Part shown: positions 1 through 64,000 of the stretch, piece after piece
How positions within the stretch are numbered: position 1 is the stretch's first letter
How the letters are laid out: each line of letters begins with the position of its first letter
Notes under the pieces: generated by a model
The model's input: the letters and a program-made list of their open reading frames with translations, nothing else
Database searches by the model: none
Told to the model about the DNA's origin: nothing
Position numbers and translations under genes: made by a program
Origin: Candidatus Marinacidobacterium sp.
GTDB taxonomy: Bacteria > Acidobacteriota > Vicinamibacteria > Marinacidobacterales > Marinacidobacteraceae
DNA length: 64,000 nucleotides
Direction of reading: 5' to 3'
Assembly: GCA_965204755.1 (NCBI GenBank)
Contig: OZ242011.1
Span: 1,472,001 to 1,536,000, forward strand

Positions 1-948
1 GATTCCATACCCCTCGCCCACATAGTCGTCGAGAACGGTGACATCGCCGGGAACGATCTCGATACCGAGATCCATCGCGGAAGCGGTCTCCTGCGCGATC
101 CCCAACACATTCCTCTCGCTCGCTTCCTTCGCGCCGCCGGTGCTGATCCCGATCACGCGCACTTCCGGCGCGAGCGCCTTCGCGCCCACCACCAGACCGG
201 CCTGCGTGCTGCCGGAACCGGAAGCGTGCACCACATGGGTCATTCCGATGCCGCGTTCCTTCGCCTGACCCAGCAACTCGCGAAAGCCGTTCGCGTAGGC
301 GACCGCGCCGAGCGGGGCGGTCATCGAGTGGCCGGTGCGCGAACCGCCGACCGCGACCACATAAGGATTCCCCCCGGCCTCGCGGACCGCGGCGGCGACG
401 CGCTCCACTTCCGCTTCCCGGTCGTCGTCCGGTTCGAGCAGGCGCACCTCCGCGCCGAGCAGTCGGTCGAGGAGCAGGTTGCCGTCGGCGGGCGCCACCG
501 GCTGGCCTTCCCGGCGCTGCAACACCAGGGTCGCCTCCATCCCCAGGCGGCGGGCGCCGGCGGCGGTCATCCGCGCCCAGTTGGACTGCACCCCGGCCCA
601 GGTGATCACCCGGTCGCTGCCGCGCGCCCGGGCGTCGGCGAGGATGAAGTCCAGTTTCCGCGCCTTGTTGCCGCCGAGCGCCAGCCCGGTCTGGTCCTCC
701 CGTTTCACGAAGAGCCGCGGGCCGCCGAGTTCGGCGGCGAGCGCCGGCATCTCGTCGAGCGGCGTGGGCAGGTGGGCGAGCGGCGCGCGCTCGAATCCGG
801 CGACGGCTCGATCGAAACGGGCCATGGCGTCTCCTTCGGACGGGTCGCCCGCGCCCCCGCCTCCGGTCCCGCAGGCGGCCAAGGCGGCCGCCGCGGCGGC
901 GAAGAGCGGGAGACACCGGGAACGGCGCGGCGAGCGAGGAACGGGCAT
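1..948 (-). CDS. D-cysteine desulfhydrase / ACC deaminase family PLP enzyme (3' end runs off window); optional N-terminal lipoprotein signal
   Basis: Manual minus-strand translation (absent from ORF track): LAHLPTPLDEMPAL..LFVKREDQTGLALGGNKARKLDFILADA..VQSNWARMTAAGARRLG, the PLP-lysine GGNKxRKL motif. ATG at 948, alternative ATG at 825 with SD GAAGGAG. Confidence 0.85.
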   Translation of the reverse strand, partial: MPVPRSPRRSRCLPLFAAAAAALAACGTGGGGAGDPSEGDAMARFDRAVAGFERAPLAHLPTPLDEMPALAAELGGPRLFVKREDQTGLALGGNKARKLDFILADARARGSDRVITWAGVQSNWARMTAAGARRLGMEATLVLQRREGQPVAPADGNLLLDRLLGAEVRLLEPDDDREAEVERVAAAVREAGGNPYVVAVGGSRTGHSMTAPLGAVAYANGFRELLGQAKERGIGMTHVVHASGSGSTQAGLVVGAKALAPEVRVIGISTGGAKEASERNVLGIAQETASAMDLGIEIVPGDVTVLDDYVGEGYGI

Positions 949-1100
949 GGGGGAAACCTCTCGGGGGAGCGGGCTGCGCCGGGTCGAAGCGAGCGCCCCG
1001 CGGCCCCTCTCGAAAAGGAAGTGTACGGGGAACCGAACGGGCCTCCGCCGCCTCGGGCTCGCCCCTAGAATTCCCCGCTCGCCCCGTCCCCGGAACCCGT

Positions 1101-2726
1101 TTGGCCCGTCTCGAATCCCGCCTGCTCACGGGTTCCGATGAGTTCCGGGCGAACCGGAAACACTGGCTCGCCGCCGCGGAAGTCCTGCGGCAGCGGCGGG
1201 ACGCCATCCTCCGGGGAGGCGGCGAGGCGGCGCGGGAGCGCCACCGCGCCCAGGGGAAACTCCCGGTGCGCGAGCGGATCGAGTTGCTGACCGATCCGGG
1301 GACCCCGTTTCTGGAGATCGGGGCGTTCGCCGGGTTCGAGTGCTACGACTCGCCGACCCCGGCGGCGGGGCTGGTCGCGGGAGTGGGGTCGGTCTCCGGG
1401 CGGCTGGTGATGGTGGCGGCCAACGACGCCACGGTGAAGGGCGGCGCCTACTACCCGCTCACGGTGAAGAAGCACCTCCGGGCGCAGGAGATCGCGCGGG
1501 CGCTCCGCCTGCCCGCCGTTTACCTGGTGGACAGCGGCGGAGCGTTCCTGCCGCTGCAGGCGGAAGTCTTCCCCGACCGCGAGCACTTCGGGCGGATCTT
1601 CCGCAACCAGGCGGTGATGAGCGCCGAAGGCATCCCGCAACTCTCCGCGGTGATGGGGATGTGCACCGCCGGCGGCGCCTATGTCCCGGCCATGAGCGAC
1701 GAGGCGATCATCGTCGGCGGGGCGGGGACGATCTACCTGGGCGGCCCGCCGCTGGTGAAGGCGGCCACCGGGGAGACGGTCACCCCGGAGGAACTGGGCG
1801 GCGCGCGGGTGCACACCGAGCGCTCCGGCGTCGCCGACTACTTCGCCGAGGACGACCGGGACGCCATCCGGCAGTTGCGCGGCCTGGTGGCCCGGCTGGG
1901 GCCCGCCGGGACGAAGCCGGCGGAGAGCCGGACGCCGGAGCCGCCGCTCTACCCCGAAGAGGAGTTGCTCGGCGTCCGGCCGCGGGACGCGCGGGTGCAG
2001 CAGGACATCCGGGAGACCTTGGCGCGGCTGCTGGACGGCAGCCGGCTCGACGAGTTCAAGGCGCGTTACGGGACGACCCTGGTCACCGGTTTCGCCCACC
2101 TCGAGGGAATCGCGGTGGGCGTGGTGGCGAACGACGGCGTCCTGTTCAGCGAGAGCGCGCAGAAGGGGGCGCACTTCGTCCAACTGTGCGCCCGCGAGGG
2201 ACTCCCGCTCCTGTTCGTCCAGGACATCACCGGGTTCATGGTGGGCGCCCGCTACGAACACGGGGGGATCGCCAAGGACGGGGCGAAACTGGTGAACGCG
2301 GTGGCGACCGCCGGCGTCCCGAAGATCACCCTCATCGCCGGCGGGAGTTTCGGCGCCGGGAACTACGCCATGTGCGGGCGGGCCTACGACCCGGCGTTCC
2401 TCTGGACCTGGCCGTCCAGCCGCATCTCGGTGATGGGCGGCGAGCAGGCGGCCGCGGTGCTGACCGAAGTGAAACGCAGCCAGCGGGAGCGGGCGGGGGA
2501 GGAACTCCCGGCGGAGGAAGCGGAAGCGATCGCGGCGCCGGTGCGCGAGAAGTACGAACGCGAGGGGTCGCCGTACTACGCCTCGGCGCGCCTCTGGGAC
2601 GACGGGATCGTGGACATGCGCGAGACCCGGCGCGCGCTGGCGCTCAGCCTGGCGGCGGCGCTCGAAGCGGGACGGCCGGGTTCGGGCGCGGCGCCGCCGC
2701 CCCGCCACGGCATCTTCCGGATGTGA
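1101..2726 (+). CDS. mccB: Methylcrotonyl-CoA carboxylase-like beta (carboxyltransferase) subunit
   Basis: 541 aa; ANDATVKGGAYYPLTVKKHLRAQEIA, GMCTAGGAYVPAMSDE, GGSFGAGNYAMCGRAY, YASARLWDDG motifs; TTG start, TAGAAT -10 at 1066-1071. Confidence 0.92.
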   Translation: MARLESRLLTGSDEFRANRKHWLAAAEVLRQRRDAILRGGGEAARERHRAQGKLPVRERIELLTDPGTPFLEIGAFAGFECYDSPTPAAGLVAGVGSVSGRLVMVAANDATVKGGAYYPLTVKKHLRAQEIARALRLPAVYLVDSGGAFLPLQAEVFPDREHFGRIFRNQAVMSAEGIPQLSAVMGMCTAGGAYVPAMSDEAIIVGGAGTIYLGGPPLVKAATGETVTPEELGGARVHTERSGVADYFAEDDRDAIRQLRGLVARLGPAGTKPAESRTPEPPLYPEEELLGVRPRDARVQQDIRETLARLLDGSRLDEFKARYGTTLVTGFAHLEGIAVGVVANDGVLFSESAQKGAHFVQLCAREGLPLLFVQDITGFMVGARYEHGGIAKDGAKLVNAVATAGVPKITLIAGGSFGAGNYAMCGRAYDPAFLWTWPSSRISVMGGEQAAAVLTEVKRSQRERAGEELPAEEAEAIAAPVREKYEREGSPYYASARLWDDGIVDMRETRRALALSLAAALEAGRPGSGAAPPPRHGIFRM

Positions 2727-2736
2727 GGGGGCGGAG

Positions 2737-4698: not shown

Positions 4699-5522
4699 CC
4701 ACCCCCCACCTCTCCCTGGACTACGGCGACCACGGGGTCCTCCACCTCCGCCTTCGCCGCCCGGAGGCGCGGAACGCGCTGACCCCGGAGATGGTCGCCG
4801 GGATTCCGGTCTTGCTCGCCGAAGCCGCGGCGCTCCCGGCGGAGGACTGCCGCCTGCTGGCGCTCCGGGGCGACGGCCCGGTGTTCTGCGCCGGGGCGGA
4901 CATCCGGGCGATGCGCGAGTCGGGCCGGGCGGGCGAGGAGGCGAACCTCGCGGACGCCCGCGGCTTCGCGTCGCTGTTCCGGTCGGTGGCGTCGTTCCCG
5001 GCGCCGGTCATCGCCGGAGTCCAGGGGGCGGCGATCGGCGGCGGTTTCGGGCTCGCGGTGGCCGCGGACCTGGTGGTGGCCGAGGAGAACGCCCGGTTCG
5101 GCACGCCGGAGGCGCGGCTCGGACTCACCCCGGCGGTGATCTCGCCCTATGTCGTCCGCCGCCTCGGCCCGGGCGCGACCGGCCCCTTCCTCCTCGGCGG
5201 CTCGGTGGCGGCGGGAGCGGAGGCGCAGCGCCTCGGCATCGCCCACGAACTGGCCCCGCCGGGCGACTTGGATGGCGCCGTAGCCCGCGCTGTCCGCCGC
5301 TTCCTCGAGTGCGCCCCGAACGCCGTCCGGAAGACGAAGGAGTTGATCCTTCGCGAGTCCCCGCTCCCGCCCCCCGAAGTCGAGGAAGCGACCATCCGCA
5401 CCATCGCCGCCGCCCGCGCCTCCGAGGAGGGCCAGGCCGGCGCCGCCGCCTTCTTCGCCCGAAAGCCGCCGCCGTGGATGCCCCCGGCGGCGCCGAAAGA
5501 CGCGGACGAAGGGGGCTCGTGA
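4695..5522 (+). CDS. Enoyl-CoA hydratase/isomerase (methylglutaconyl-CoA hydratase-like)
   Basis: True start is ATG 4695 overlapping the atuA TGA (ATGA); RPEARNAL, FCAGADI, GAAIGGGFGL, PEARLGL crotonase motifs; 275 aa. Confidence 0.9.
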   Translation: MTTPHLSLDYGDHGVLHLRLRRPEARNALTPEMVAGIPVLLAEAAALPAEDCRLLALRGDGPVFCAGADIRAMRESGRAGEEANLADARGFASLFRSVASFPAPVIAGVQGAAIGGGFGLAVAADLVVAEENARFGTPEARLGLTPAVISPYVVRRLGPGATGPFLLGGSVAAGAEAQRLGIAHELAPPGDLDGAVARAVRRFLECAPNAVRKTKELILRESPLPPPEVEEATIRTIAAARASEEGQAGAAAFFARKPPPWMPPAAPKDADEGGS

Positions 5523-5801: not shown

Positions 5802-6977
5802 ATGCCGGCCGTAAAGTCCGAACTCCTGGTGTGGGCTCGCAAGACCGCCGGCCTCACGATCGAGGATGCAGCGGAGAAGGTCGGCGTCGGCGACACGAAG
5901 ACCGCCACCGCGGCCGAACGACTGTCGGCGATGGAGTCCGGGCGCAAGGAACCGTCGCGCACGGTGCTTCTCGCCATGGAGCGGGTCTATCACCGACCGC
6001 TCGTCGCGTTCTACCTCTCCCGCCCCCCGGCCAAGGGGGAACGCGGCGTGGACTTCCGCACGCTCCGTGGCGGTGGAGAGCCTGCCGACGAGGCCCTGCT
6101 GGACGCCTTGGTGCGGGACATCCTCGCGCGCCAGGACATGGTCCGTGCGCTGTTGGAGGACGACGAGGACTCGGAGACCTGCGAATTCGTCGGTTCCCGC
6201 ACGGTCGAGGACGGTTTGGACTCCGTGCTCGAGTCACTTCAGACTGTCCTGCGTACCGACCTGCAGGCTTACCGCAAGCGACCGACGGCGTCCAAGGCGT
6301 TCGCTCTGCTGCGCGACCGAGTGGAAGCGACCGGGGTGTTCGTTCTGTTGAAGGGCGACTTGGGAAGTCACCGATCGCGTATCCCGTTGGAGTCTTTCCC
6401 GGGTTTCGCCATCGCCGATCCCGTCGCGCCGTTCCTCGTGATCAACGACCACGATGCCGCGCCGGCTCGTTCCTTCGCACTCCTGCACGAAGTCGTCCAC
6501 TTGCTCCTCGGGCAGACGGGCGTGGGCGCTGTGCGGACGGAACACCCGGACGAACGGTTCTGCGACGAAGTCGCCGGAGAGTTCTTGCTCCCGTCGCGCG
6601 AACTGAGCGAACTGACCGTGCCTCGGGGAGACCGCAACAGCGTGGCGAAGGCCATCGCCGAATTCGCCGATGAGCGCAACCTGAGTCGCACCATGATCGC
6701 CTACCGCTTGGCTCGCGAGGGAAGTCTCGACTGGGCGCTGTACGAGAGACTCAGCGCCGGGTGGCGCATCGAGTGGCTCGAACGCAAGCGCCGCGTGGCC
6801 GAGGACGGCGAGACCAAACCGAATTTCTACACCGTCAGGCGCCACCGTCTCGGCAGGCGTCTGACCGAAGTCGTTCGCTTGATGATGGATTCGGAAGATC
6901 TTTCCACGGGTAGGGCGGCGCGGATACTCGGCGTGGGAATCGGTCAAGTGGATCCGCTGCTCGAGCCGGCGTCCTGA
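5802..6977 (+). CDS. XRE-HTH + ImmA/IrrE family Zn metallopeptidase
   Basis: N-terminal HTH (LLVWARKTAGLTIEDAAEKVG..ESGRKEPS), RSFALLHEVVHLLLG HExxH, ERFCDEVAGEFLLP; SD GGAGG. Confidence 0.9.
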   Translation: MPAVKSELLVWARKTAGLTIEDAAEKVGVGDTKTATAAERLSAMESGRKEPSRTVLLAMERVYHRPLVAFYLSRPPAKGERGVDFRTLRGGGEPADEALLDALVRDILARQDMVRALLEDDEDSETCEFVGSRTVEDGLDSVLESLQTVLRTDLQAYRKRPTASKAFALLRDRVEATGVFVLLKGDLGSHRSRIPLESFPGFAIADPVAPFLVINDHDAAPARSFALLHEVVHLLLGQTGVGAVRTEHPDERFCDEVAGEFLLPSRELSELTVPRGDRNSVAKAIAEFADERNLSRTMIAYRLAREGSLDWALYERLSAGWRIEWLERKRRVAEDGETKPNFYTVRRHRLGRRLTEVVRLMMDSEDLSTGRAARILGVGIGQVDPLLEPAS

Positions 6978-6982: not shown

Positions 6983-7528
6983 GTGCTGTACCTGCTGGAT
7001 GCCAGCGCGCTGATCCGCGCGCACGGGGACTACTATCCGGTGCATCGCGTGCCCGAGTTCTGGAATTGGTTGTTCCGCATGGCGGAGGAGCGCCGGGTCG
7101 CCGTTCCCGTGGAGGTCTATGGGGAGACCGTCAACAGGAAGAAGCCGGACGACTTCGTCAGGTGGATTCGCAGACGCCGAGAGACCATGAAACTCGGGGA
7201 GACGGTTCGACCCGACTTCGTATCCTCCGTCGTCGATCGCGGCTACGCGCCCGACCTGAAGGAGGACGAGATCAGGAGATTGGGGCGTGATCCGTTTCTC
7301 ATCGCCTACGCGCTGCGTGATCCCGAAGACCGATGCGTCGTAACCGACGAGCGTTCGCGGCCCGGCCGGCAACGGGCCAACCGGCATATTCCCGATGTGT
7401 GCGCCGACCTGAACATCCGATGTATCCACATGTTCGGGTTGATTCGCGAACTGGACTTCCGAACGGGCGGGCAACTGCTCGAGGTCACGAGACGACTTCC
7501 GTTGGACGGCCCGCCGGCGTCGAACTGA
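6983..7528 (+). CDS. DUF4411 family PIN-like protein
   Basis: YLLDASALIRAHGDYY..VPEFWNWL, DPFLIAYAL, VVTDE, IPDVC acidic PIN motifs; 5 bp downstream of the ImmA gene. Confidence 0.85.
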   Translation: MLYLLDASALIRAHGDYYPVHRVPEFWNWLFRMAEERRVAVPVEVYGETVNRKKPDDFVRWIRRRRETMKLGETVRPDFVSSVVDRGYAPDLKEDEIRRLGRDPFLIAYALRDPEDRCVVTDERSRPGRQRANRHIPDVCADLNIRCIHMFGLIRELDFRTGGQLLEVTRRLPLDGPPASN

Positions 7529-7692
7529 CCGAGGGTCGTGGATCGGCGTCGAGATTCCTCGTTCAGTCGAGGGGGCGCAGGGCGGGGCGTTCGTCGCCAT
7601 CTGCCGCCCGTTCGACGCACGACCAACTGCCGATGAGCCGCCTCGATGTCCGGCCGCGGGAACTCGACTCCACGACGATGTCCCGACGATCC

Positions 7693-13284: not shown

Positions 13285-14442
13285 ATGAGCCGCCGCCGCC
13301 CGCCCCTTCCGTCGGGCGGCGGGCGCCACGAGGCCCGCTCGGCGGCGCGGCGGTTCGGCTGCCGGACCGTCGTCGCGCCGGCGATCGCCCTCTCGACCGC
13401 CCTCTCGACCGGGAACGCGCCCGGTTACCGGTTCACCGGGTACCGGCAGTTGCCGCTGCCGACCGTGGAGACCGCCGTCCGCTGGCGGGCGGACCGGTGG
13501 GGCCCGGGAGCGTCGGTCGTCTGGCGCCTGGCCCGCGACTCCGCCTGGACGGCGGCGTGGACCGACGACCTCGGGGCGCCGCAGCCGCCGCCGTTCCGGA
13601 CGGTCGCGGACGCGGTCCCGATGGTGGCGGAATCCTTGGGGGTTTGGGCGGAGGTCGCCTCGGCGGACATCCGCTGGCGGGTCGAGGGGACGGTCGCCGG
13701 CGCGGGAGGGGACCTCGACGGGACGAACACGATCTCCGTGGACGACGCCCCCGGCATCCTCGGTTGGGCGAGCGCCTGGTGGGAGCGGAACGAGGCGAAC
13801 GACGGCTGGGAGGTCGTCGAATGCGACATCGGCCTGGTCCCGACCGCGGTGGCCGGCTACGCGCCGGGACGACCGCGCCCGAACGCGACCCTGGTCCACG
13901 AACTCGGCCACTGCATCGGTCTCGACCACGCGAGCGACCCGGGGGAGTGGGCCGGCCTCCACGATCTCGATTCCGGCTTCCTCGGCGAGCCGCCCAAGAT
14001 GTCCTACGGGCGGCCGCTCACCGACCTCCTCCATCCGGACGACCGCGCCGGCGCGTCGCTTCTGCGTCCGGCCCCCGGCTGGAGGCGGCGCACCGGGACG
14101 ATCACCGGGACGGTCACCGCCGGCGGAAGACCGGCGCGCTACGCCGCGATCTTCAGCGCGCGGTTGGTCGGCGGCGAAGCGAGCCCCGGCCCGGCCACCT
14201 TCGCCGATGACCGCGGCCGGTTCGAACTCGCCGGCGCCGCGCCCGGCGACTACCTGCTGCGGGCCGGAGCGATCCCGGACATCGGGACCCACCAGAGCCT
14301 CGTGAACGAGGGCGAGGGGGCGTCGTTCGATGTCCGCGACGGCCTCCTGCTCGAACCGGTGACCGTCCGCGCCGGGGAAACGACGACCGGAGTCGCGCTG
14401 GTCCTCGCGCCGGGGCGCGCGGGATCGGGTTACCCGCGCTGA
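13285..14442 (+). CDS. Secreted metzincin metalloprotease, paralog 3
   Basis: HELGHCIGLDH, PPKMSYG, ADDRGRFELAGAAPGDYLL; same architecture as paralogs 1 and 2. Confidence 0.8.
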   Translation: MSRRRPPLPSGGGRHEARSAARRFGCRTVVAPAIALSTALSTGNAPGYRFTGYRQLPLPTVETAVRWRADRWGPGASVVWRLARDSAWTAAWTDDLGAPQPPPFRTVADAVPMVAESLGVWAEVASADIRWRVEGTVAGAGGDLDGTNTISVDDAPGILGWASAWWERNEANDGWEVVECDIGLVPTAVAGYAPGRPRPNATLVHELGHCIGLDHASDPGEWAGLHDLDSGFLGEPPKMSYGRPLTDLLHPDDRAGASLLRPAPGWRRRTGTITGTVTAGGRPARYAAIFSARLVGGEASPGPATFADDRGRFELAGAAPGDYLLRAGAIPDIGTHQSLVNEGEGASFDVRDGLLLEPVTVRAGETTTGVALVLAPGRAGSGYPR

Positions 14443-14445
14443 GCT

Positions 14446-38383: not shown

Positions 38384-38460
38384 GGCGGGGTAGCTCAGTC
38401 GGTTAGAGCGGAGGACTCATAACCCTCAGGTCGGCGGTTCGAGTCCGCCCCCCGCTACCA
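38384..38460 (+). tRNA. tRNA-Met(CAT), elongator type
   Basis: GGCGGGG/CCCCGCT acceptor, TAGCTCAG D-arm, anticodon loop CTCATAA, GGTTCGAGTCC T-arm, encoded CCA; extended -10 TGATAGCCT at 38342. Confidence 0.93.
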
Positions 38461-44080: not shown

Positions 44081-45990
44081 ATGAAGAAGAACCGCTCGAA
44101 CCGGCAGTGGCGGTGGGAAACCGTCGACCCGAATGTGGGCGCTGCCGGCGGCGCCTTCGCGAAGGTGTTTCGCAACCTGGAGGAGAAGAAGCCCGGCTTT
44201 CTGGAGGAAGGCGCTCCGGGGTTGAACGCTTACCTGATGGCTCGAGAGGTCATCCAGAACGCATGGGACGCCGCCCTCGAGTTGCGGAAACCTGCCCCCC
44301 CCCCCCCCCCGCAAAAAGTCTTCCAGATTTCTACATCCAGTTCGACTTTCGTGTGCTGAGCGGTTCGGAAAAGAAGTCGCTCATCGCCACACTGGACTTG
44401 GGCGGGCATGTCGAGCGGCTTTCGCAACTCGAACGACAGACGATCGGTCTCGATGACGATCTCTGTCTGGATCATCTCGAGAGCAACGAACCGCTCCCGG
44501 TTCTCGTCATCGAGGAGACGGCAACGACCGGGATGTTCGGGCCGTGGAAGGGCGCCAAGTCGAAACTCTTCAAGGCTCTCGCCGCCCTCGGCATCCAAGG
44601 CAAGGACGATGCGGATGCCGGGGGTGCCTTCGGTTTCGGCAAGGCGGGCCTGATTCGCGGTTCGGCCCCGCGGATCGTGGTGGCCTACACCTGCTTCCGG
44701 GAACAGATGGACGATCCAGGAGTTACCCGTCGCCTCTTGGGAATCACCTATTGGGACGCACATTCACTGGACGACCGAGACTTCACCGGAATGGCGCGTT
44801 GGGACACGAACTCCGATGAGCCGCGACCGTTCGAGAACGACGAGGCGGACGGTATCGCCGAGGAACTGGGGCTGAGGCTTCGCCACCCGGACAACGACGA
44901 GGACTTCGGCACTTCGTTCTTGATCCTGCAACCCACCGTCGATCCGGGGAGGCTGGAGACCGCGATCAACCGCTCTTGGTGGCCGGCGCTGGAAGACACG
45001 ACGCTCGGCTTCCAGGCAGCGATCCGGCCGCCCGGCGAAGACGCGCGTTCTCCGCGACCGCAACAGGACGCCGACCTGCAGCCCTTCGTCCGTGCTTATC
45101 GGCAGGCGACCTCCACCGCAAAGTTCATCGGCAAAGTTCCCAACCTCCACTCTTTTGATATCTGGGACTCGTCCCGACTACTGGGAAAACTCGTACTGGT
45201 CACCGACCCGGACGGTTGGTCGTTCCAGGACCCGAGTTCGTCATCGGATGAGAGTCTCGTCGCGCTGATGCGCAACACGCGGATGGTCGTGGAATATCGA
45301 AAGTTGGGGTTCCGGGAGACCACTCCGATCGTTCGCGGCGTCTTCGTGGCGGACGACGGCGTGAGCGGTCTTCTCCGGGAAACGGAACCCGTCGGGCACG
45401 ATGCTTGGTATTCGGGTGGTGACGAGAACGATGCCAGCGAAGAGGCTCGTGCTGTCGCAGACTGCATCCTGAAGAAAATCAAGGATCGCGTTCGCAAGGT
45501 TCGCAAGGACTTGGCGCCGCCCGCACCGAAACCGGAGTTCGTGAGGCTCCCGGAGTTCGACCGCATCATGCGGCGCATCTTGGGCGGCGAGGGCCGAAAA
45601 CAGGGGCCGACCGCGCAGAGGCGTTTCGTACGGTTGGATGGAATCGAGAGCGAGCCCGAGATCGTTGGCCACGGGCTCATCCGTACCACCGGGTCCGCGC
45701 AGTTCGGTCTGAGCGAAAATTTTCCGGTGTCCCGCCCCGGCGCACGCGTTGCCATCCAAGTCCGTTTCGTGGTACTCGAGGACGGTCAGGCCCGCGGCGC
45801 CAATAGCGTCCCGGTCGCAGTCGCGCCTCCCGATGGCTTCGAAGTCGCCGACGACGCCGATCCCCACCGCTTCACGGGCTGGTTGGCTCGCGGCGACGAA
45901 CACGGCTTCTCCTTCCAAACGGATCCTTACGACGAGGATTGGACCGGTCGGCTCTACATCGAGGCCGAATTCCTTTCCGAGGACTCTTGA
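44081..45990 (+). pseudogene. GHKL (HATPase/MORC-like) ATPase split by a C16 tract (phase-variable OFF state or assembly slip); about 636 aa when in frame
   Basis: Frame 44081 carries the N-box AREVIQNAWDA. After the C-tract the other frame carries the G1-like IEETATTGM and G2 GGAFGFGKAG. C14 or C17 would fuse them. Confidence 0.8.
44295..44310 (+). repeat. Poly-C16 homopolymer (slipped-strand contingency locus candidate)
   Basis: CCTG-C16-GCAAAAAG; the longest homopolymer I saw, located exactly at the frame switch. Confidence 0.9.
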
Positions 45991-46976
45991 ATCGAGAACG
46001 CAAGACCGTACGCCCGTTTCGGGGCGTAGCGCCGTCGCTGACCAGAGCCCTGCGGAATGCGGTTCTTCGGTTCGGAGAGAAACAGGTCACCGCGGGCGCT
46101 CGCCTCCAGTGGGACGACTTCGAGACCTACCGAGACCAAGACATTTTGCTGGAGTGGAGCGCGGACGACGAGTCTCCGACCTTCTTGTCCGGGCTGAAAC
46201 AAGGCTGCCGCGAGTCCGGTCTGCCTCCCGACAGTCTGGCTCTCGTCGTCACGGCCACCAGCCGGTATCTCGGTATCGTGGATGTCCTCTTCAACTGTCC
46301 TCTGGACGACTTGGATGAACTCGAACCTGCCCTTGACCTTCGGGCCGAGAAAACCGACGCGGCGGCTTGGAGGACATGTGTCCGAGGTTGCCGGGTGGAC
46401 GCGTATCTCCTGCTCGCCCGCAAACTGGAAGAACGGCCTCTTCGCCCCTGGAGGAAGGGAGTGTGGCTGTCGAGGGCGAGTTTCACGGTAGCGACAGACT
46501 ACACGGAGAGTCTGTTTCGACCGAGGAAACTGGACGACAAACAGCGGAAGCGATTTCAACTCTCGGTTCAGGCGCTCCGCTATGTCCATCTTCCGGAACC
46601 CGTCTGGGAGGAATATGACCCCGAAGAGCCGCCGGAGGTGTACTTGGACGCCGAGATCATGGCGCAGATCGCGGCGAAGCCGAAAGCGCTGCCGAGCCGC
46701 CTGGCCCAAGCGGAACTCGCCTATGTGTTCCTGCGTGGCGTCCTCACCGATGCTCACATGAACCGAAAGCAGTGGCGCGGGCGCATGTGGCGGGACATCG
46801 CGAACACACTGCTCGGCAAGGCCCTTCGCGCCATCGCCGGGAAGAACGCGCCCGTCGCCGAGTGCGCTCGATGGATGGACAGACTCGGCAGTGACGGTGG
46901 CTTGGAGGGTGTCGTGTCGGAGTGCGAGGGCGTCACCGAAATTCGCGCTCTTCTTCGCGACGCGTTTCGGGAGTAG
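45987..46976 (+). CDS. Hypothetical protein (329 aa), gene 2 of candidate defence cassette
   Basis: TTG overlapping the ATPase TGA (TTGA); globular composition, lower GC; no recognised motif. Confidence 0.75.
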   Translation: MNRERKTVRPFRGVAPSLTRALRNAVLRFGEKQVTAGARLQWDDFETYRDQDILLEWSADDESPTFLSGLKQGCRESGLPPDSLALVVTATSRYLGIVDVLFNCPLDDLDELEPALDLRAEKTDAAAWRTCVRGCRVDAYLLLARKLEERPLRPWRKGVWLSRASFTVATDYTESLFRPRKLDDKQRKRFQLSVQALRYVHLPEPVWEEYDPEEPPEVYLDAEIMAQIAAKPKALPSRLAQAELAYVFLRGVLTDAHMNRKQWRGRMWRDIANTLLGKALRAIAGKNAPVAECARWMDRLGSDGGLEGVVSECEGVTEIRALLRDAFRE

Positions 46977-46981
46977 CCACG

Positions 46982-47704
46982 ATGCGATACAAGACACTCC
47001 CGCTCCAGGAGTGTCGGCGTTTCGCCCGCGAGCGACTCGCGGGAGAGACGCCGGACATCGGTACGGGCGTTGTCTTCGCCGGAGCCGGCGAAGACCTCGA
47101 CATAAAGCCGATCCGCAAGGCCGCCAAGAAGATCGTCCGTCTCGTCGACGACAAGGCGAAGGATCGGGATCGAATCGAGGGGAAGGCCGCTGTTCTCCTC
47201 TACGACGGCCTTGCCGGAGTCCCGGTCGACGCACTCGACGATCCGGGTTTCTGGCGCTACCTGAGTGTCGGATTGGCGTTTTGGGGCTTCATCGCCTGGA
47301 GGGAGCACCGCGCACTGCAGAAGGGCGACAACTTCCTCAAGTATGTCGACGGGAAGAAGGCGACCGAGTGTGTCCTTCCGCGCATGTACATGCGCGTGTT
47401 GGCGCTCGGCGCCCGGGACGACCCGAAGGGACAGTTCCGGGAACTGGCTACGGCGCTTCCGGCCGCGACGGACTTCTGGCGGAGTCATGTGGTCCGGGTG
47501 CAGACCGCGGCGTCGCCGGCCGTCGTTCGGGCGTTCGCGCGAATGCAAAAAGAGAGGCGTCTCAACACCGACGATCTCCGGGAGTTCGCGAAGGACATTT
47601 CCAAGATCCGTTCGACGGTCGTTTTGAGCATCTACAACGACGAGGAAGCCGACATCTTCATCCGAGACCTTCGCGCGAAGTTCGACCGCCGGAAGGCCGG
47701 ATAG
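46982..47704 (+). CDS. DUF6339-like protein (240 aa), gene 3 of cassette
   Basis: SD GGAG; EGKAAVLLYDGL..ALDDPGFWRYLS..FWGFIAWR..LPRMYMR pattern resembles DUF6339 (recognised by eye). Confidence 0.55.
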   Translation: MRYKTLPLQECRRFARERLAGETPDIGTGVVFAGAGEDLDIKPIRKAAKKIVRLVDDKAKDRDRIEGKAAVLLYDGLAGVPVDALDDPGFWRYLSVGLAFWGFIAWREHRALQKGDNFLKYVDGKKATECVLPRMYMRVLALGARDDPKGQFRELATALPAATDFWRSHVVRVQTAASPAVVRAFARMQKERRLNTDDLREFAKDISKIRSTVVLSIYNDEEADIFIRDLRAKFDRRKAG

Positions 47705-49071
47705 TGAGTCTTGCCGGCGCCGCCCGGCAGTCCCGTGTGGTTGCCGCGAAGGGAACGCTTCGGGAGGATTATCGGCACAACGGGAGTGTCCGGCACTCGC
47801 TCGCGCTCGGCGCGCGACGGGGCCTGAGCGCCGATCTGGGAGAGCCGGAGAGCGCCCCTCGCTGCAGCGGCGATCCCAAGGGCGAGTGGTGGCGCGCCTA
47901 TCTCCGCGGCCGCCGACCGGTCACAGCGAACCCGAGCGGGAAGACCCTGCGCATCGCCGACCTGTTCTGCGGGGCCGGGGGACTCGCGCTCGGGGTTCGC
48001 CAGTTGTGCGACGAAGCCGGTCTCGAGCCGGTCTGGGAGTTCATCGCCGACCGAGACGACGGCGCGGTGGCGGTGTACGCGGGGAACCACCCGGTGCGGC
48101 GGGTCTCGAGGGAATCGGTGTCCGACCTGCTGGACTACCGGGTGCGGCGGCGGTCGAGCGGGGCCGAGTTCGTCTATGAATCGGAGTTCCTCGACCCCGA
48201 GTTGCGCAAGGCGGTGCGCGGCGTGGACCTGGTGATGGCCGGGCCGCCGTGCGAGGGGCATTCGAACCTGAACAACCACACGCGCCGGGACGACCGGCGG
48301 AACCACCTCTATCTCGCGGTTCCGGCGTTCGCGGTCGCTGCGGGGGCGCGGATGGTGCTCATCGAGAATGTGCCCGCGGTGGAGAACGACCGCAGCGGAG
48401 TGGTCGAGGCGGCGCGTAACCTGTTGGAGGCTGCCGGTTATTCCGTCGAAACCGGCGTCCTCGCCGCCGACGCCATGGGATGGCCGCAGACGCGGCGGCG
48501 GTTCTTCCTGGTGGCTCACCGTTCCCGCGCGCCAGTGCCGTTCGCGGCGATCCGTGAGGGTCTCGCCGACGATGCTCCGCGCCCGCTCTGGTGGGCCATC
48601 GAGGACCTGGAGGAGACCGGCGGCGACGATCCGCTGCATCGCGTGGGGGAACTCAGCGAGGAGAACCGCGCTCGTATCGCGTGGCTGTTCGACAACGACG
48701 CTCACGAACTCGACCTCTCCGAACGGCCGGCCTGCCACCGGGACGGCACGACCTACTCGGCGGTGTACGGGCGTATGCACCGGGACCAGCCCGCGCCGAC
48801 GATCACGACCGGTTTCCTGACACCGGGCCGCGGCCGGTTCGTGCATCCGACCCGGCGACGGACGCTGACCCCGCGCGAAGCGGCCCGGCTGCAGGGTTTT
48901 CCCGACACCTACCGGTTCGCTCCGGAGGCCGACCGAGTCCCCACCCGGTCGCAACTCGCGAAGTGGATCGGGGACGCGGTGCCCATGCCGCTCGGCTACG
49001 CCGCGGCGCTCTCCCTGCTCGCCCCCGAGTTGGGCCGGGCGAGCCCGCGACGGAAACCGCAGCACGCGTGA
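47704..49071 (+). CDS. dcm: DNA (cytosine-5)-methyltransferase
   Basis: DLFCGAGG (I), GPPCEGHS (IV), ENVP (VI), PQTRRRFFLV (VIII), LTPREAARLQGFPD (IX), IGDAVP (X); GTG overlaps upstream TAG. Confidence 0.95.
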   Translation: MSLAGAARQSRVVAAKGTLREDYRHNGSVRHSLALGARRGLSADLGEPESAPRCSGDPKGEWWRAYLRGRRPVTANPSGKTLRIADLFCGAGGLALGVRQLCDEAGLEPVWEFIADRDDGAVAVYAGNHPVRRVSRESVSDLLDYRVRRRSSGAEFVYESEFLDPELRKAVRGVDLVMAGPPCEGHSNLNNHTRRDDRRNHLYLAVPAFAVAAGARMVLIENVPAVENDRSGVVEAARNLLEAAGYSVETGVLAADAMGWPQTRRRFFLVAHRSRAPVPFAAIREGLADDAPRPLWWAIEDLEETGGDDPLHRVGELSEENRARIAWLFDNDAHELDLSERPACHRDGTTYSAVYGRMHRDQPAPTITTGFLTPGRGRFVHPTRRRTLTPREAARLQGFPDTYRFAPEADRVPTRSQLAKWIGDAVPMPLGYAAALSLLAPELGRASPRRKPQHA

Positions 49072-49510
49072 CCGGCGCCGGCGCCGGGCCGGCGCGGGAG
49101 GAGTCGGTCCCGGAGTCCGTTCGGCGGCGGATGCGGAATACGCCGCGGCGGGATACGCCGTTCGAGGTCGCGGTGCGGAAGCAGGCGTACGCGTTGGGCC
49201 TGCGCTATCGCGTGGACTGCGGCGTTCCCGGAGTGACCCGGGGACGGCCCGACCTGGTATTCAGCGGACGCCGGGTGGCCGTGTTCCTCGACGGCTGCTC
49301 TGGCACTCCTGCCCGATCCACCGCTCGGCCCCGGCCACGAACCGCGAGTGGTGGGCCGCCAAACTGCGGGCGAACGCCGACCGCGACGAACGCCACCGCC
49401 GGGAACTCGAGGACGCCGGATGGACCGTCCTCCGCTTCTGGGAACACGAAGATCCCGCAACCGTCGCCGCCGAAATCGCCGCCGCGGTTCGCGGGTCCCA
49501 ACCGGGCTGA
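49068..49510 (+). pseudogene. vsr: Very short patch repair endonuclease Vsr, frameshifted
   Basis: RRDTPFEVAVRK..GLRYRV..RPDLVF..VAVFLDGC then TC TGG CAC (one T missing from FWH); continues WHSCPIH..NREWWAAKLRANADRD..GWTVLRFWEHED to TGA 49510. Confidence 0.9.
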
Positions 49511-49540
49511 CGGGCCGCAACCGGCCCCGCATGAGTTACT

Positions 49541-49599
49541 GACCCGGCGGGCGCCGGGTCGAGGGCGCGCCCCGGGGCCGGGGAGACCCCGGGGCGCGC
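49541..49599. terminator. Tandem hairpins between convergent vsr and flotillin genes
   Basis: GACCCGGCG/CGCCGGGTC (49541-49560) and GCGCGCCCCGGGG/CCCCGGGGCGCGC (49565-49599). Confidence 0.45.
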
Positions 49600-49605
49600 G
49601 GGTGC

Positions 49606-50925
49606 TCAGTGGCCGCTGTGGCCGAGGGGGCCGCGGGCGGAACCGCGCTTGGCTCCCCGTTCCGCTTCGCCTGCCGCCGGCGGGCCGTCGCTGTCCTTCC
49701 TGTCGGAGGAGAGGAGCGCCGGGACATCCACGCCGGTGGCGGTCTTCAACTGCTCGAGGAAGGCCGCGACGGAACCGGTGAGGCCGCGCACATGGCTCGG
49801 CACGCCGCCGCCGTCGCCGTTGTCCACCACCGTGAGCCGCTCCACATGGAGGTTGTCGTGGAGGACATGGGTGACCTTGTCGATCAGGTGCGGGAGCATC
49901 TGGAGCAGCATGATCTCCCGTGCGGTCTCGTCGGTCCACTGCATCTTGATCTGCTCGATCGCGGCGGCGGTGGCCTTACCGTTCTCGCGGATCTTCGAGG
50001 CGGCGCCCTCGGCGGCGAGGATCTTGGCCCGGCTCGCCGCTTCGGCGGGAATGACCGTGTTCGCCTGTTCCCGCTTCTGGTTGCGCTCGACCCGGATGTC
50101 TTCGAGTTCGCTCTGCTGGCGGGCGCGGGAGATGGCCCGGGCGACCTCCGCGACCTCTTCCGCCTCGTTCGACTTGGCGGAGCGCTCGGCGCGGCGCATG
50201 CGGACTTCGTGCTCGGCGTCCACGATGGCCTGCTCGGCCTCGGTCTCCGCCACCACCGCGCTGCGCTTGGCTTCGGCGGCCACGCTGCGCGCCTCGGCGT
50301 CCGCGGTCGCTTCCTTCTTGAGGGCGTCACGCCGGACTTCCGCGCTCTTCTGCCGTCCGATGGCTTCGAGGTAGCCCTCGGAGTCGGAGAGGTGCTGGAT
50401 CTTGAAGGTGTCGAGCACCAGCCCGAGGCGGCCGAAGTCGGTCTGCGCCGCCTCGGAGGCGGAGTCGGCCACGGCGAGGCGCTCGGCGTTCGCCGCTTCC
50501 GGCGTCCGGGTGGCGAGCACGCCGCGGAGGCTGCCTTCGAGCGTCTGCCGCGCCACGGTCTGGATCTCGTGTTCGCTCTTGCCGAGGAAACGCTCGACCG
50601 CCTGGTCGAGGCCGCCGCCGACTTCGCCGGACACCTTGACCGTGGCGAGGCCTTCGACATCCAGCGAGATCATGCCGGCGGAGAGCGCCTTCTGGACCTT
50701 CACTTCGATCGGGATCGTGTTCAGCGAGATGCGGGACACGGTCTCGATGAGCGGCCGGCGGAAGCCGCGGCCCCCGCGAATCACCCGGAACCCGCGCTTG
50801 CGGCCGGAGAAGATCACCGCTTCGTTCGGCGCGCAGACGACGACATGGCTGCGGATGAAGATGATGAACGCCATGACGGCGGTGGCCCCGAGGGCGATGA
50901 TGATTCCGATGGTTCCTGGAGTCAT
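49606..50925 (-). CDS. Flotillin/SPFH family protein
   Basis: N-terminal TM, PNEAVIFSG, AVERFLG, LEGSLRGVLA, GYLEAIG, Ala/Glu-rich coiled coil, VIPAEA. Confidence 0.88.
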   Translation of the reverse strand: MTPGTIGIIIALGATAVMAFIIFIRSHVVVCAPNEAVIFSGRKRGFRVIRGGRGFRRPLIETVSRISLNTIPIEVKVQKALSAGMISLDVEGLATVKVSGEVGGGLDQAVERFLGKSEHEIQTVARQTLEGSLRGVLATRTPEAANAERLAVADSASEAAQTDFGRLGLVLDTFKIQHLSDSEGYLEAIGRQKSAEVRRDALKKEATADAEARSVAAEAKRSAVVAETEAEQAIVDAEHEVRMRRAERSAKSNEAEEVAEVARAISRARQQSELEDIRVERNQKREQANTVIPAEAASRAKILAAEGAASKIRENGKATAAAIEQIKMQWTDETAREIMLLQMLPHLIDKVTHVLHDNLHVERLTVVDNGDGGGVPSHVRGLTGSVAAFLEQLKTATGVDVPALLSSDRKDSDGPPAAGEAERGAKRGSARGPLGHSGH

Positions 50926-54711: not shown

Positions 54712-55088
54712 TGGTGGAGGCGGCGGGAATCGAACCCGCGTCCGAAAGCCTTCCACAGCGACCTCTACATGCTTAGCCGCGTCGTGGCGGGGAACTGCGC
54801 CCGAGGGCGCGCTCCCCTTTTCGCCTCCGCGCCGCATCGACCCGGCGAGTCGCGGCGTGGACGCTATCCCTGGGGTTTCGCCGCCGGCGCGGGAGAACCG
54901 TCGGCTGAGCCCGCCTCGTCGTCGCCCCTTCCCGCCCGGCAGGCGTGGTCAGGAGGGGCGTGACGGCCTAAGCCGCCAGAGCCAGTTCAGTGTTGTTGGC
55001 TTGTGTGTGGTTTCCACCGTTCGCGAGAGGTGGACCCTCGGCATGCAATCGCTGCTTCCTGTACCTTCGTCGAACCCAGTACGCCCCC
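54712..55088 (-). ncRNA. ssrA: tmRNA; tag peptide ANNTELALAA*
   Basis: 5' GGGGGCGTACTGGGTTCGAC, 3' GGGTTCGATTCCCGCCGCCTCCACCA with G3-U70 pair; tag ORF 55000-54968; GCATG/CATGC helix pair. Confidence 0.97.
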
Positions 55089-57478: not shown

Positions 57479-59817
57479 AGGCGCCTGGAGAGGCGAAGGA
57501 GGCAGGCGCGGCAGGGGCCCACGGCGGCGCGGCGGGCGCGGGGCGGCCGCCCGGGCCGGGCGCCGGCCGCGCGGCGGGGATCCTGGCGGCGGCGCTCGCG
57601 GCGGCGGGAATCGCCGCGGCGCCCGGGATCGCCGCGGAGGAGCGGCCCGCCGGGAGCGGCGGGGCCGAGGGCGGGCGACCGGCCCGGGGTGAGCGGCCCG
57701 CCGAAGGCGGCGGACCGAGCGAAGGCCGCCGGCGCGCCGGGATCGGCCGCCTCTTCGAGGGTCGGGCGGCGGCGACCACCGGTTCCTCGTCCCGCCTCGT
57801 CGAGCGCCCCGGCGCCGAGGAGCACGCCGCAGCCCGGCAACGGCTCGACGCCGGCGACTTCGCCGGGGCGGTCGAATCGGCCTTCGACGCGCTGCTCCGC
57901 TCCCGGGAGTTCGCGCCGGAGGATTGGGGCGGCGAAGCGCCGGAGGGGAACCTCGTGCTCGACGACTTCGCCGGAGCGGCGGCCGCCGCCTACCGGGCAG
58001 CCCGCCAAGCCTACCGGGCGACGCTCGCTGCCGCCCTGGCCGGCGCGGGCGACTTCGCCGGGGCGGAGGCCGAATATCGCCGGCTGATCGCGCTCGACCC
58101 CCGGTCGGAACACCTCGCGAGACTCGCGGACCTCCCCGGCGTCGCGCCGGAGGAGCGGGTCCGGCTGCTCCTCCGCGCCTGGGCCGCTGCGCCGGCGGCG
58201 GAGCGCGGGGCGGCCCTCGAACGCCTCCGGGAGAGCGGCGCCTTCCGCACCGCGAACGGACTCGCCGCCGCCCTCGACCGGTTCCGCTTCGACGATCCGG
58301 ACGCCTTCCGCGGCCGCCCGCCGGAAGGGCTGGAGTTGAGATCGACCCCGTTCCCGCCGCTGACGATCGCGGTCGAAGGGGGCGCGTACTCCACCGGGAG
58401 GTCCTTCGGCGAAGGCCGCTCGCTGCTCCTCTACTTCCCCGGACGCGGCTGTCCCCGCTGCGGGGAGTTGATCGGCGACCTCCAGGTCGTTCTCCGGGAA
58501 CGCCGGGTGGATGTGGTCTTCGCCGCGCAGGACGCGGAACTGCCGCTGCTCCGCCGGGCGGCCGAACTCACCGGCGCGGGCCTCTTCCAGCCGGAGCCGC
58601 ACACCGCCGCCGGCCGTTCGGCGCTCACGCCGCGTCCGGTCGCCCATGTGGCCCGGCGGGCGGCGCTCGACTTCCGACCGGGCCGCGATGCGGAGGAAAC
58701 CCTCTGGCTCGCCGCCCGGGGCGGGCTGAGTGTCCTTCGCGCCCGGCTCGGCGACGGGGATTCGCCGCGGCGGCTGGTGGCCGCCCTGTTCGACTTCCTC
58801 GACGATTCGCCGGTCGCCGGCCGCCCGGAACCGCTTTCCTCGGCGCCCGCGGACTCCGACTCCCCCGAGTCGCTGATCGAGGCGCTCCGCCGGCTCGAGG
58901 CCGGCGGGGAGCCGCTCGCCGACCTCGAACGGGCGCTCCTCGGGAGCGTGCGGAGCCGGGTGCGGCAGGAAGCGGAACCGGCGGAATTCGCGCGCCGGTT
59001 GCTGGCGTCCGCCGCCGGGCTTCGCGGGAGTACCGGAACCAAATTGCGCCTCCTCGGGGCGATGGCCCCCGAGTTCGGGACGCGGTCGCTGGAAGCCGCG
59101 CAGGCCCGCGACGCGCTGGTGATCGGGCCGGCCTCCGGCGGCAGGGTCGCCGTCGCCGTCGGAAGCGGGGCGGGCGAGGGTTGGACGGCGGCGCTGCGCG
59201 AGTACGAGAGGTACGGCGGCGGCCGGCGGGTCCTCGCGGTGACGACCCGGGAGGTCCCGGGCGGCGGCCCGGGAATCGTTCGGGCCCTCGACCTGTTCGC
59301 CGGGCGGGTCGGGAGGGCGGCGGCGCGGGAGGACGGATTCGCGTTCTCCTGGCGCGAAGGCCCCGACCGGACGAGTTGCGCGGCCTGGGGGCCGCCGACC
59401 GGCCCGCTGGAGCGGCTCTGCCCGGCCCAAATCGGCCCCGCAGGCGAAATCCTCGTCCGAACGCCGCAACTGGTCGCCTTCCCCGGCGAGAGCGATCCGC
59501 CGGCGGGCGGGCCGGAGACGCTCCTGCGGGCCGACGGCGGCGCAGACGCGCCGGAAGCGGCGCTTCTCGGCGCCGGCCGGGAGGCGGCCGCCGCCGGGGA
59601 TCTCGCCGCCGCCGAGACCGCGTTCCGGGGGGCGCTCGAAGCTATCGGGCCGGGTTCCCCGGTGGATGCGGCGGCGGTCCGCTACGACCTGGCCGTCGTC
59701 CGGGCCGCCCGCGGGGAGCGGGACGAAGCGCTCGCGAGGTTGCTCGCGCTCGGGGACGCTTCCTTCCCGGCGACGCTCGAACAGGCCGTCGCCCGGCTCT
59801 ACCGGGAAGGCCGGTAG
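57475..59817 (+). CDS. Secreted TPR-containing hypothetical protein with thioredoxin-like CxxC (780 aa)
   Basis: ATGA overlap with slt; signal-like N-terminus, TPR-like AGDFAGAEAEYRRLIALDP and AGDLAAAETAFRGAL, LLLYFPGRGCPRC. Confidence 0.65.
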   Translation: MKAPGEAKEAGAAGAHGGAAGAGRPPGPGAGRAAGILAAALAAAGIAAAPGIAAEERPAGSGGAEGGRPARGERPAEGGGPSEGRRRAGIGRLFEGRAAATTGSSSRLVERPGAEEHAAARQRLDAGDFAGAVESAFDALLRSREFAPEDWGGEAPEGNLVLDDFAGAAAAAYRAARQAYRATLAAALAGAGDFAGAEAEYRRLIALDPRSEHLARLADLPGVAPEERVRLLLRAWAAAPAAERGAALERLRESGAFRTANGLAAALDRFRFDDPDAFRGRPPEGLELRSTPFPPLTIAVEGGAYSTGRSFGEGRSLLLYFPGRGCPRCGELIGDLQVVLRERRVDVVFAAQDAELPLLRRAAELTGAGLFQPEPHTAAGRSALTPRPVAHVARRAALDFRPGRDAEETLWLAARGGLSVLRARLGDGDSPRRLVAALFDFLDDSPVAGRPEPLSSAPADSDSPESLIEALRRLEAGGEPLADLERALLGSVRSRVRQEAEPAEFARRLLASAAGLRGSTGTKLRLLGAMAPEFGTRSLEAAQARDALVIGPASGGRVAVAVGSGAGEGWTAALREYERYGGGRRVLAVTTREVPGGGPGIVRALDLFAGRVGRAAAREDGFAFSWREGPDRTSCAAWGPPTGPLERLCPAQIGPAGEILVRTPQLVAFPGESDPPAGGPETLLRADGGADAPEAALLGAGREAAAAGDLAAAETAFRGALEAIGPGSPVDAAAVRYDLAVVRAARGERDEALARLLALGDASFPATLEQAVARLYREGR

Positions 59818-59859
59818 GGAAAGCCCGGCCCGCGCCCCCTCGGCCAGGGGGCGGCGACC

Positions 59860-63589: not shown

Positions 63590-63735
63590 GGGCGAGTCGG
63601 GAGGTTAGCAGCCGGTCGGCGGGCGCCGAGGCGCCTTCGACGCGGAGCCGGGTGGCCGGGATTCCCCACTGATCCCCTACTTCGGCGAGCGGCTCGCGCT
63701 GTGGAAAACTCACCGGCTTCCCGAAGGGGCCACCG

Positions 63736-64000
63736 ATCACCGAACCGAATGGGACCGCCGGCAGCGCCGACCGGGGAAGCGTCTCCGGCGGGCCGCCGAC
63801 CGGGCCCGGGCGCCCGCCGATCGCGGTCATCGGCGGCAGCAGCGCTTCCGACGCCGTCCTCGCGCTCGCCGAAGCCGTCGGGCGGGAGATCGCCGCGTCC
63901 GGGTCTCCGCTCGTCTGCGGGGGGCTGGGCGGGGTGATGGAGGCCGCCTGCCGGGGCGCGGAGGCCGCCGGGGGGCTCACCATCGGGTTGCTGCCGGGAA
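63736..64000 (+). CDS. TIGR00725 family (LOG/SLOG-like) protein, runs off window
   Basis: Manual translation IAVIGGSSAS..VGREIA..LVCGGLGGVMEAACRGA..GLTIGLLPG; no canonical in-frame start (ATC 63736 proposed). Confidence 0.8.
   Translation, partial: MTEPNGTAGSADRGSVSGGPPTGPGRPPIAVIGGSSASDAVLALAEAVGREIAASGSPLVCGGLGGVMEAACRGAEAAGGLTIGLLPG

Follow-up and report, generated by a model that had tools for sequence, protein, structure and literature searches.

Near-elimination of ACGT and AGCT from a Candidatus Marinacidobacterium genome, probably through long selection against restriction sites

Features of the window and counts of ACGT and AGCT

We analysed a stretch of 64,000 bases (72.5% guanine plus cytosine, GC; hereafter the window) from Candidatus Marinacidobacterium sp. 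(Acidobacteriota; assembly GCA_965204755.1, contig OZ242011.1, positions 1,472,001 to 1,536,000), in which the two tetramers ACGT and AGCT are nearly absent. The window holds housekeeping genes (PEPCK, glnA, P-II, amt, carD and biotin carboxylases) and a four-gene cassette ending in a C5 cytosine DNA methyltransferase gene, dcm. The few sites that remain are placed as follows.

1..64000, no strand: the window as a whole, ordinary chromosome with the same depletion as the genome
9020..9023, no strand: the sole ACGT of the window, which falls within a biotin-carboxylase-type gene (7333-9732)
14442..14445, no strand: residual AGCT, made up of the A of a TGA stop codon and GCT
38392..38395, + strand: residual AGCT in a tRNA gene, close to its 5' end (38384-38457; Rfam tRNA, 67.8 bits)
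59640..59643, no strand: residual AGCT between two called genes

Counts were compared with zero-order, first-order Markov and maximal-order Markov expectations. ACGT occurs once in the window against 159, 171 and 102 expected under these three models, and AGCT three times against 159, 132 and 117, while other palindromes are plentiful (TCGA 473, GATC 401, CATG 129, TGCA 73). A first-pass annotation, made by eye, had reported no ACGT and only two AGCT. The near-elimination it described stands, as do its two AGCT sites at 14442 (at a stop codon) and 38392 (in a tRNA gene); the zero count for ACGT does not, given the site at 9020, and the AGCT at 59640 had been overlooked. It had also put the zero-order expectation at roughly 160 of each word and called TCGA, GATC, CATG and TGCA common, both in agreement with the counts, and it was right that the lower-GC inserts share the avoidance: the low-GC stretches of the window, including that at 44-49 kb, contain neither word. 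Its description of the effect as window-wide holds for the window but is too narrow, the trait being genome-wide and clade-wide.

Depletion across the genome and independence of codon usage

Within the whole genome (3,975,858 bases), ACGT was counted 265 times against 7,147 expected under the maximal-order model and 10,247 under the zero-order model (observed/expected ratio, O/E, 0.037), and AGCT 332 times against 7,446 and 10,247 (O/E 0.045). These are the two lowest O/E values among the 256 tetramers, with CTAG third at 0.13, and no 50-kb bin of the genome holds more than 16 ACGT or 25 AGCT. The depletion is deeper still in 3-kb segments with GC of at least 0.69, where the observed to expected counts are 95/7,773 for ACGT and 159/7,773 for AGCT. 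DNA with local GC below 0.66 makes up 7% of the genome and holds 53% of the residual ACGT and 39% of the residual AGCT, and this concentration of leftover sites is consistent with a purging of newly acquired DNA that continues or was recent.

Genes were called crudely, as long open reading frames (ORFs) with high GC at third codon positions (GC3), which gave 2,449 ORFs that together span 83% of the genome, and synonymous codons were shuffled within genes in five rounds. By frame (0, 1 and 2, respectively), ACGT was observed 30, 68 and 32 times against 1,910, 3,540 and 471 after shuffling, and AGCT 42, 58 and 38 times against 1,786, 5,079 and 463. Both words are thus depleted 12- to 90-fold in all three frames, with control words (TCGA, GATC, ACCT and AGGT) at 0.86-1.95 of their shuffled counts, and single-codon usage therefore does not account for the depletion. 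The first-pass annotation had noticed that codon pairs dodge the sites against the GC3 bias, and the genome-wide counts bear this out: GAC-GTN occurs 30 times versus 2,084 for GAT-GTN, against a GAC:GAT count of 20,661:1,983 ahead of other G-starting codons, and GAG-CTN occurs 24 times versus 1,260 for GAG-TTG and 3,605 for GAA-CTN. Uncalled or non-coding DNA shows the same pattern, with 135 ACGT against 1208-1943 expected and 190 AGCT against 1190-1455 expected.

As a separate observation, AGCA and TGCT are present at about twice their maximal-order expectation genome-wide (11,020 versus 5,412 and 10,780 versus 5,304) and at about 1.4 times the first-order expectation in uncalled DNA. The only explanation we offer is that the missing AGCT may distort the Markov model.

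Selection on the words versus decay of methylated cytosine

The first-pass annotation had taken the words that replace the two sites as a signature of 5-methylcytosine (m5C) deamination. In such a mutational decay both sites would be C5-methylated and lost by deamination, with no selection on the sites themselves; depletion driven by m5C is familiar from the loss of CpG in vertebrates and from the effects of Dcm and Vsr on CCWGG-related words in Escherichia coli. Like those examples, the genome studied here combines C5 methylase genes (six of them) and Vsr genes with an excess of TG/CA-type words: ATGT/ACAT and AACT are about 1.6-fold over-represented under the Markov model, and by our own arithmetic on the genome counts the surplus of product words roughly equals, in order of magnitude, the number of sites lost. 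The difference is that the loss here does not depend on the C-to-T route. In the dominant frames (xAC-GTx and xAG-CTx), GAT-GTx, GAA-CTx and GAG-TTG are the only synonymous escapes, and since the code leaves no other, the apparent deamination products do not discriminate between mutation and selection. In xxA-CGT and xxA-GCT a C-to-T change affects the protein whichever strand it hits, so hypermutation alone should spare such sites, but their counts are down to 0.068 and 0.082 of those after shuffling. Accordingly low codon shares are seen after A-ending codons, with CGT at 0.4% of Arg (4.1-10.9% elsewhere) and GCT at 0.5% of Ala (4.0-12.8% elsewhere).

Thr codons followed by T are informative in another way, as all three escapes from ACG are then synonymous single steps. 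In this position ACG falls to 0.6% (31-58% otherwise), and ACC (69.5%), ACT (23.5%) and ACA (6.4%) make up the remainder. The ratios of A- and T-ending to C-ending codons (A/C 0.093, T/C 0.338) lie close to what other four-fold boxes show ahead of T (five boxes, A/C 0.019-0.079; T/C 0.086-0.429), and the escapes from ACG track normal codon preference, not the C-to-T route. By comparison, a simple substitution model of our own, in which only G-to-A is accelerated, predicts a Thr A/C ratio of 0.8-1.0 and needs a more than 1,000-fold acceleration. In uncalled DNA the transition products reach 1.84-1.93 times the first-order expectation, and the transversion neighbours ACTT/AAGT are raised almost alike, to 1.70-1.72 times. 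Vsr genes, whose products repair T:G mismatches, lie within 4 kb of five of the six C5 methylase genes, the dcm of the window included; the Vsr match beside the second methylase cassette described below spans positions 1-59 of the 74 profile positions and contains an internal stop. Taken together, the frame, Thr and uncalled-DNA tests and the Vsr genes argue that the words themselves have been selected against, and we consider loss by m5C deamination alone very improbable. The wider suggestion of the first-pass annotation, long-term C5 methylation or restriction pressure, is therefore retained as pressure on both sites and dropped as methylation decay.

Phylogenetic limits and persistence of the avoidance

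To place the trait among relatives, the genome studied (G000) was considered within its family of 28 genomes, and 39 relatives were sampled (40 samples in all: 30 with a length of 20 kb, plus 10 taken from short contigs and 2.5-9.6 kb long; the unpublished G033 was left out). Among these 39, only G001, of the same genus, is depleted in both words, with observed/expected counts for ACGT and AGCT of 1/25 and 2/37 in one pair and 5/39 and 8/64 in a second. G005 and G007 are depleted in ACGT only (second samples: ACGT 8/92 and 8/96; AGCT 114/116 and 110/101). For whole genomes of relatives we used the 6-mers GACGTC and GAGCTC against a reversed-word control as a proxy, which is blind to the difference between avoidance of ACGT and avoidance of GACGTC. 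By this measure GACGTC is scarce in G000 (45 versus 946 for the control), G001 (72 versus 1,491), G005 (80 versus 919) and G007 (119 versus 549). G006 also has a reduced count (139 versus 285), although its 20-kb sample shows ACGT at a normal level (40/42), so the GACGTC loss there is a 6-bp effect. The remaining 23 family genomes carry 836-1,919 GACGTC against 397-1,064 for the control. GAGCTC stands at 29 versus 2,146 in G000 and 143 versus 2,060 in G001; the other 26 genomes have ratios of 0.35-1.03.

Avoidance therefore follows lineage and not base composition: ACGT is avoided in 4 of the 28 family genomes and AGCT in 2, and relatives of similar GC are normal. On a GlnA tree (one gene, quick search) genera g1, g5 and g7 form one clade with SH-aLRT support of 96; PEPCK had been tried as the marker and was set aside because no matches were obtained in G005 and G007. 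Avoidance of ACGT is thus a mark of this three-genus clade, and avoidance of AGCT a mark of one genus. Differences at four-fold sites amount to 0.34-0.36 between G000 and G001 and, to the other genera, to 0.43-0.47, which is about saturation, and such nearly saturated synonymous divergence implies that the pressure was long maintained in each lineage.

Beyond the family, we screened a phylum sample of 400 genomes for GACGTC versus its control by hand count. About 31 of the 400 have GACGTC at no more than one tenth of the control (e.g., G063 with 1 versus 1,017 and G360 with 0 versus 347), and none of the three unpublished genomes within the sample is depleted. In 20 of these roughly 31 genomes, followed up with samples of 2.9-20 kb (12 of them a full 20 kb), clear loss of ACGT was found in eight: G052 (0/15), G063 (0/47), G070 (3/23), G076 (2/32), G106 (1/34), G222 (1/14), G263 (3/20) and G297 (2/13). 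Near-elimination of a 4-bp palindrome is therefore recurrent in the phylum. AGCT loss was seen in two short samples (G360, 1/20; G154, 1/12). In some phylum genomes several palindromes are lost together, as in G052 with GGCC at 3/60 along with ACGT at 0/15.

Methylase cassettes and other candidate genes

Two cassettes, each with a C5 methylase gene and a Vsr-like reading frame beside it, are the best candidates for the agents of this selection. Cassette A lies in the window and ends in dcm (here M6); cassette B lies elsewhere in the genome and carries the methylase M3. A solitary DNA methylase is listed with them.

44107..45990, + strand: cassette A gene 1, a 627-aa remote relative of the PDC-M33A ATPase (PADLOC PDC-M33A, E 6.1e-6, with no scoring stretch)
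45939..46976, + strand: cassette A gene 2, a 345-aa protein with no Pfam, PADLOC or NCBIfam match
46922..47704, + strand: cassette A gene 3, a 260-aa DUF6339-like protein (Pfam DUF6339 at E 8e-4, under the cut-off; no PADLOC match)
47704..49071, + strand: cassette A gene 4, the C5 cytosine DNA methyltransferase dcm, M6 (PF00145, E 6.7e-38; TIGR00675 dcm)
49080..49781, + strand: Vsr-like T:G mismatch endonuclease frame right after dcm (PF03852, E 2.1e-11; genome match at window positions 49122-49298)
genome 1259155-1263882, outside the window: cassette B, methylase M3 and, after it, proteins matching PADLOC PDC-M33A/B/C
genome 1033879-1035120 (L209:6880-8124): solitary N4/N6 DNA methylase, native in its codon usage and vertically inherited

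Cassettes A and B agree in gene order, and each has a C5 methylase as partner. In cassette B the three partner genes of the methylase match the PDC-M33A, B and C models strongly (E 8.2e-93, 2.5e-40 and 9.9e-23) and lie in one operon, whereas cassette A is a remote relative. Gene 1 of cassette A and the PDC-M33A protein of cassette B share the stretch ...TTG...GG.[FY]G.GK, and both ATPases are presumably to be labelled GHKL. The predicted structure of gene 2 of cassette A (pLDDT 89.2) combines a beta-sandwich with a helical domain; Foldseek gave no match in the PDB at E of 0.001 or below, and the best hit in pdb_via_wide (Z 7.2) was generic and Ig-like. Homologues of this gene, 46 in number, were found adjoining M6-like methylases. 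The model of gene 3 (pLDDT 91.9) is mostly helical with no Foldseek match in the PDB (best E 0.77), and its invariant residues include D184, W186, S188 and H189. M6 itself has copies that are 71% identical in G005 and 42% identical in G001.

PDC-M33 is one of 145 phage-defence candidates in PADLOC that were put forward, untested, through 'guilt by embedding' (Payne et al., bioRxiv 10.1101/2024.01.29.577857). A full-text literature search found no paper naming 'PDC-M33' or 'DUF6339', and the literature searched has no recognition site or in vivo effect on record for the PDC-M33 family. The link of such cassettes to site avoidance is proposed here and is correlative only.

Modification genes are numerous in this genome (6 C5 methylase, 26 PF01555 and 14 PF02384 matches), and one of them serves as an internal control, an example of avoidance linked to restriction-modification (R-M). 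The C5 methylase M4 adjoins an enzyme of the BbrUII/HgiDII family (NF050001, E 1e-104, under the model's cut-off), a family which we take to cut GTCGAC, and GTCGAC has a genome-wide O/E of 0.20 (416/2,076). The M1 methylase adjoins an enzyme of EcoRII type, a Vsr gene is found about 4 kb off, and CCWGG stands at O/E 0.94. In the M4 locus (genome 2392918-2396050; L053:7934-11052) the enzyme matching the BbrUII/HgiDII family, which comes after M4, is 653 aa long and has HATPase_c_3 and a C-terminus resembling a nuclease, and a GmrSD gene and an N4/N6 methylase adjoin the locus. Defence-rich regions were also seen at genome 122000-136000, 484000-498000, 1627000-1641000 and 2590000-2605000 (L224, L206, L207 and L212), containing MADS-like methylase and ATPase genes, several Type I systems, and two BPTD_3080-family restriction enzymes beside large methylases.

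Elsewhere in the window, a gene with HTH_3 and Peptidase_M78 domains (ImmA/IrrE-type; 5802-6977, + strand) lies in a stretch of lower GC (65-69%) flanked by carboxylase genes, and a tmRNA gene (54712-55088, - strand; Rfam RF00023, 136 bits) adjoins the amt/P-II/glnA cluster.

Weighing the candidate agents

We conclude that ACGT and AGCT have been under long selection, and we infer that resident restriction endonucleases are probably the selective agent. Several results weigh against restriction. Among 89 ORFs near methylase loci searched with NCBIfam and 20 searched with PADLOC, none was named as having ACGT or AGCT specificity, nor did NCBIfam name an AluI-type or MaeII/HpyCH4IV-type enzyme among its 89; no gene with demonstrable specificity for either word was obtained. 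Two orthodox Type II pairs do not fit the distribution of the trait: the small endonuclease of one (genome 2357903-2358496) is shared by the non-avoiders G012, G002 and G014, whereas no copy was found in G005, and the endonuclease of the other (genome 491434-492180) is also present in G008, G013, G015 and G016. Furthermore, the core-genome O/E of 0.01-0.02 seems to go beyond the depletion usual for most resident R-M systems.

A specific form of the restriction explanation makes the two PDC-M33-like cassettes with their Vsr-like frames the agents, A restricting ACGT and B restricting AGCT. Their distribution within the family suits this well, with the large protein of A found only in the ACGT avoiders G000, G001 (26% identical), G005 (55%) and G007 (53%), and that of B only in the AGCT avoiders G000 and G001 (56%), plus a weak 30% match in G013; this co-occurrence, however, represents just two nested evolutionary events, and the solitary N4/N6 methylase has the same distribution as cassette A. 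Close C5-methylase pairs linking G000 with G001 are limited to M3 (69%) and M4 (47%), of which M4 is accounted for by GTCGAC, and the single C5 methylase of G005 is of the M6 type. The layout is conserved: of 66 loci examined, 48 have A, B and C upstream of the methylase. The cassettes of G000 and G005 and the B cassette of G001 are themselves free of sites (0/14 ACGT in the A cassette of G005, 0/14 AGCT in the B cassette of G001). The G001 copy at the same spot as cassette A, by contrast, is a diverged replacement in a recent low-GC island with 16 ACGT and 7 AGCT, and for this reason it cannot have caused the avoidance in G001, which is as strong for ACGT as in G000 despite the replacement. 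That spot (L047:2500-11700) lies next to PEPCK and has a DDE transposase of an insertion sequence between the three-gene module and the methylase (42% identical). Relatives elsewhere also argue against the cassettes. We examined 58 of 62 M6-relative loci found (those of at least 8 kb; 47-70% identity, several phyla judging by record titles), and only the 70% one has lost ACGT (1/43), the next lowest being 32/84. Copies in G421, G189, G298 and G389, with methylases 53-61% identical, have normal site counts (23/16, 13/17, 8/17 and 18/15) and these genomes show no avoidance. Part of the target-recognition region (M6 residues 341-380) is conserved across the M6 family. Five independent ACGT-avoiding genomes are without a close M6 relative, 16 other phylum genomes with PDC-M33A matches, sampled over 12-40 kb, show loss of neither ACGT nor AGCT, and no nuclease fold was recognised in the models of proteins B (pLDDT 89) and C (pLDDT 92). 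The 58 loci pooled (1.1 Mb) show no commonly avoided palindrome beyond CTAG (0.62) and CGCG (0.79); in many M6-relative loci from other phyla (L129-L190) CGCG lies at 0.4-0.6 of the first-order expectation (e.g., 73/185, 69/156 and 72/234), often with low TGCA. Homology gave no specificity for M3, with 4,505 relatives at E of 1e-20 or below among 8,000 candidates scored and one generic name among the 120 listed, and a metagenome scan with M3 found only four distant loci. Since relatives of the cassettes occur elsewhere with no avoidance, neither cassette is assigned as the agent; that the two together account for both words seems to us unlikely, though distinctly less so than decay of methylated cytosine, and the link between the dcm of the window and ACGT avoidance is unproven, with evidence both ways.

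The selection might also have a source unrelated to any cognate restriction enzyme, such as a conflict of methyl-dependent (Type IV, GmrSD-type) nucleases with a resident solitary methylase, or a site-specific nuclease of a mobile element. The solitary N4/N6 methylase occurs in G000, G001 (80% identical) and G007 (59%), with a decayed fragment in G005, and in none of the other 24 family genomes (E of 1e-30 or below); it is flanked by housekeeping neighbours, and both it and M4 have GmrSD genes next to them. The islands that hold these genes, however, are recent, of low GC and site-carrying, and five other ACGT avoiders are without a close relative of the methylase. One such low-GC island lies about 1 kb downstream of the methylase. 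A 374-aa supposed partner of the methylase proved to be a spurious frame, the real neighbour being a beta-lactamase-like lipoprotein. We give this explanation very little weight.

Probable restriction-site avoidance and its implications

Under selection by restriction, resident endonucleases with 4-bp specificities for ACGT and AGCT would have been long kept in the lineage, and sites left unmethylated after replication or repair would endanger the cell. With any unmethylated site a risk, removal of sites would be favoured: changes that remove a site could spread even against codon preference, and changes that create one would be purged. Avoidance of ACGT would have arisen first, in the ancestor of genera g1, g5 and g7, and avoidance of AGCT later, in genus g1.

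Restriction-site avoidance has been described as a depletion of palindromes that is genome-wide, lineage-specific, independent of codon usage and stronger with longer residence (BMC Genomics 2015;16:1084, PMC4687349). The compositional and phylogenetic patterns found here are of this kind, with GTCGAC as an example within the same genome; different are the loss of two 4-bp sites at once and its depth (O/E 0.04 overall, 0.01-0.02 in the core), and the enzymes here are candidates only. The same tetramer AGCT is almost or wholly gone from pandoravirus genomes, where the loss likewise follows phylogeny and is ascribed to selection by an agent not identified there (Poirot et al., bioRxiv 10.1101/712018). 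Whereas that account concerns a giant virus of amoebae, the present case is an R-M-rich bacterium, for which restriction is the obvious candidate, and it has lost ACGT as well. We rate it a strong fresh example of a familiar phenomenon, restriction avoidance.

The genome offers an unusually clean natural case of selection at the DNA level overriding codon preference, in which codon pairs such as Glu-Leu and Asp-Val have been rewritten by the thousand, and the reading-frame logic applied here separates selection on a site from the decay of methyl-cytosine. If the cassettes are not responsible, this would be strong but ordinary restriction avoidance, recurrent in the phylum. If they are, a defence family so far uncharacterised would acquire both a phenotype and recognition sites, and the purge of sites would be the first in vivo footprint, with the first predicted recognition sites, for the widespread but untested PDC-M33 family. 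Selection by resident restriction endonucleases further predicts that members of the clade make, or once made, ACGT- and AGCT-specific enzymes, for which the genes named above provide a short list.

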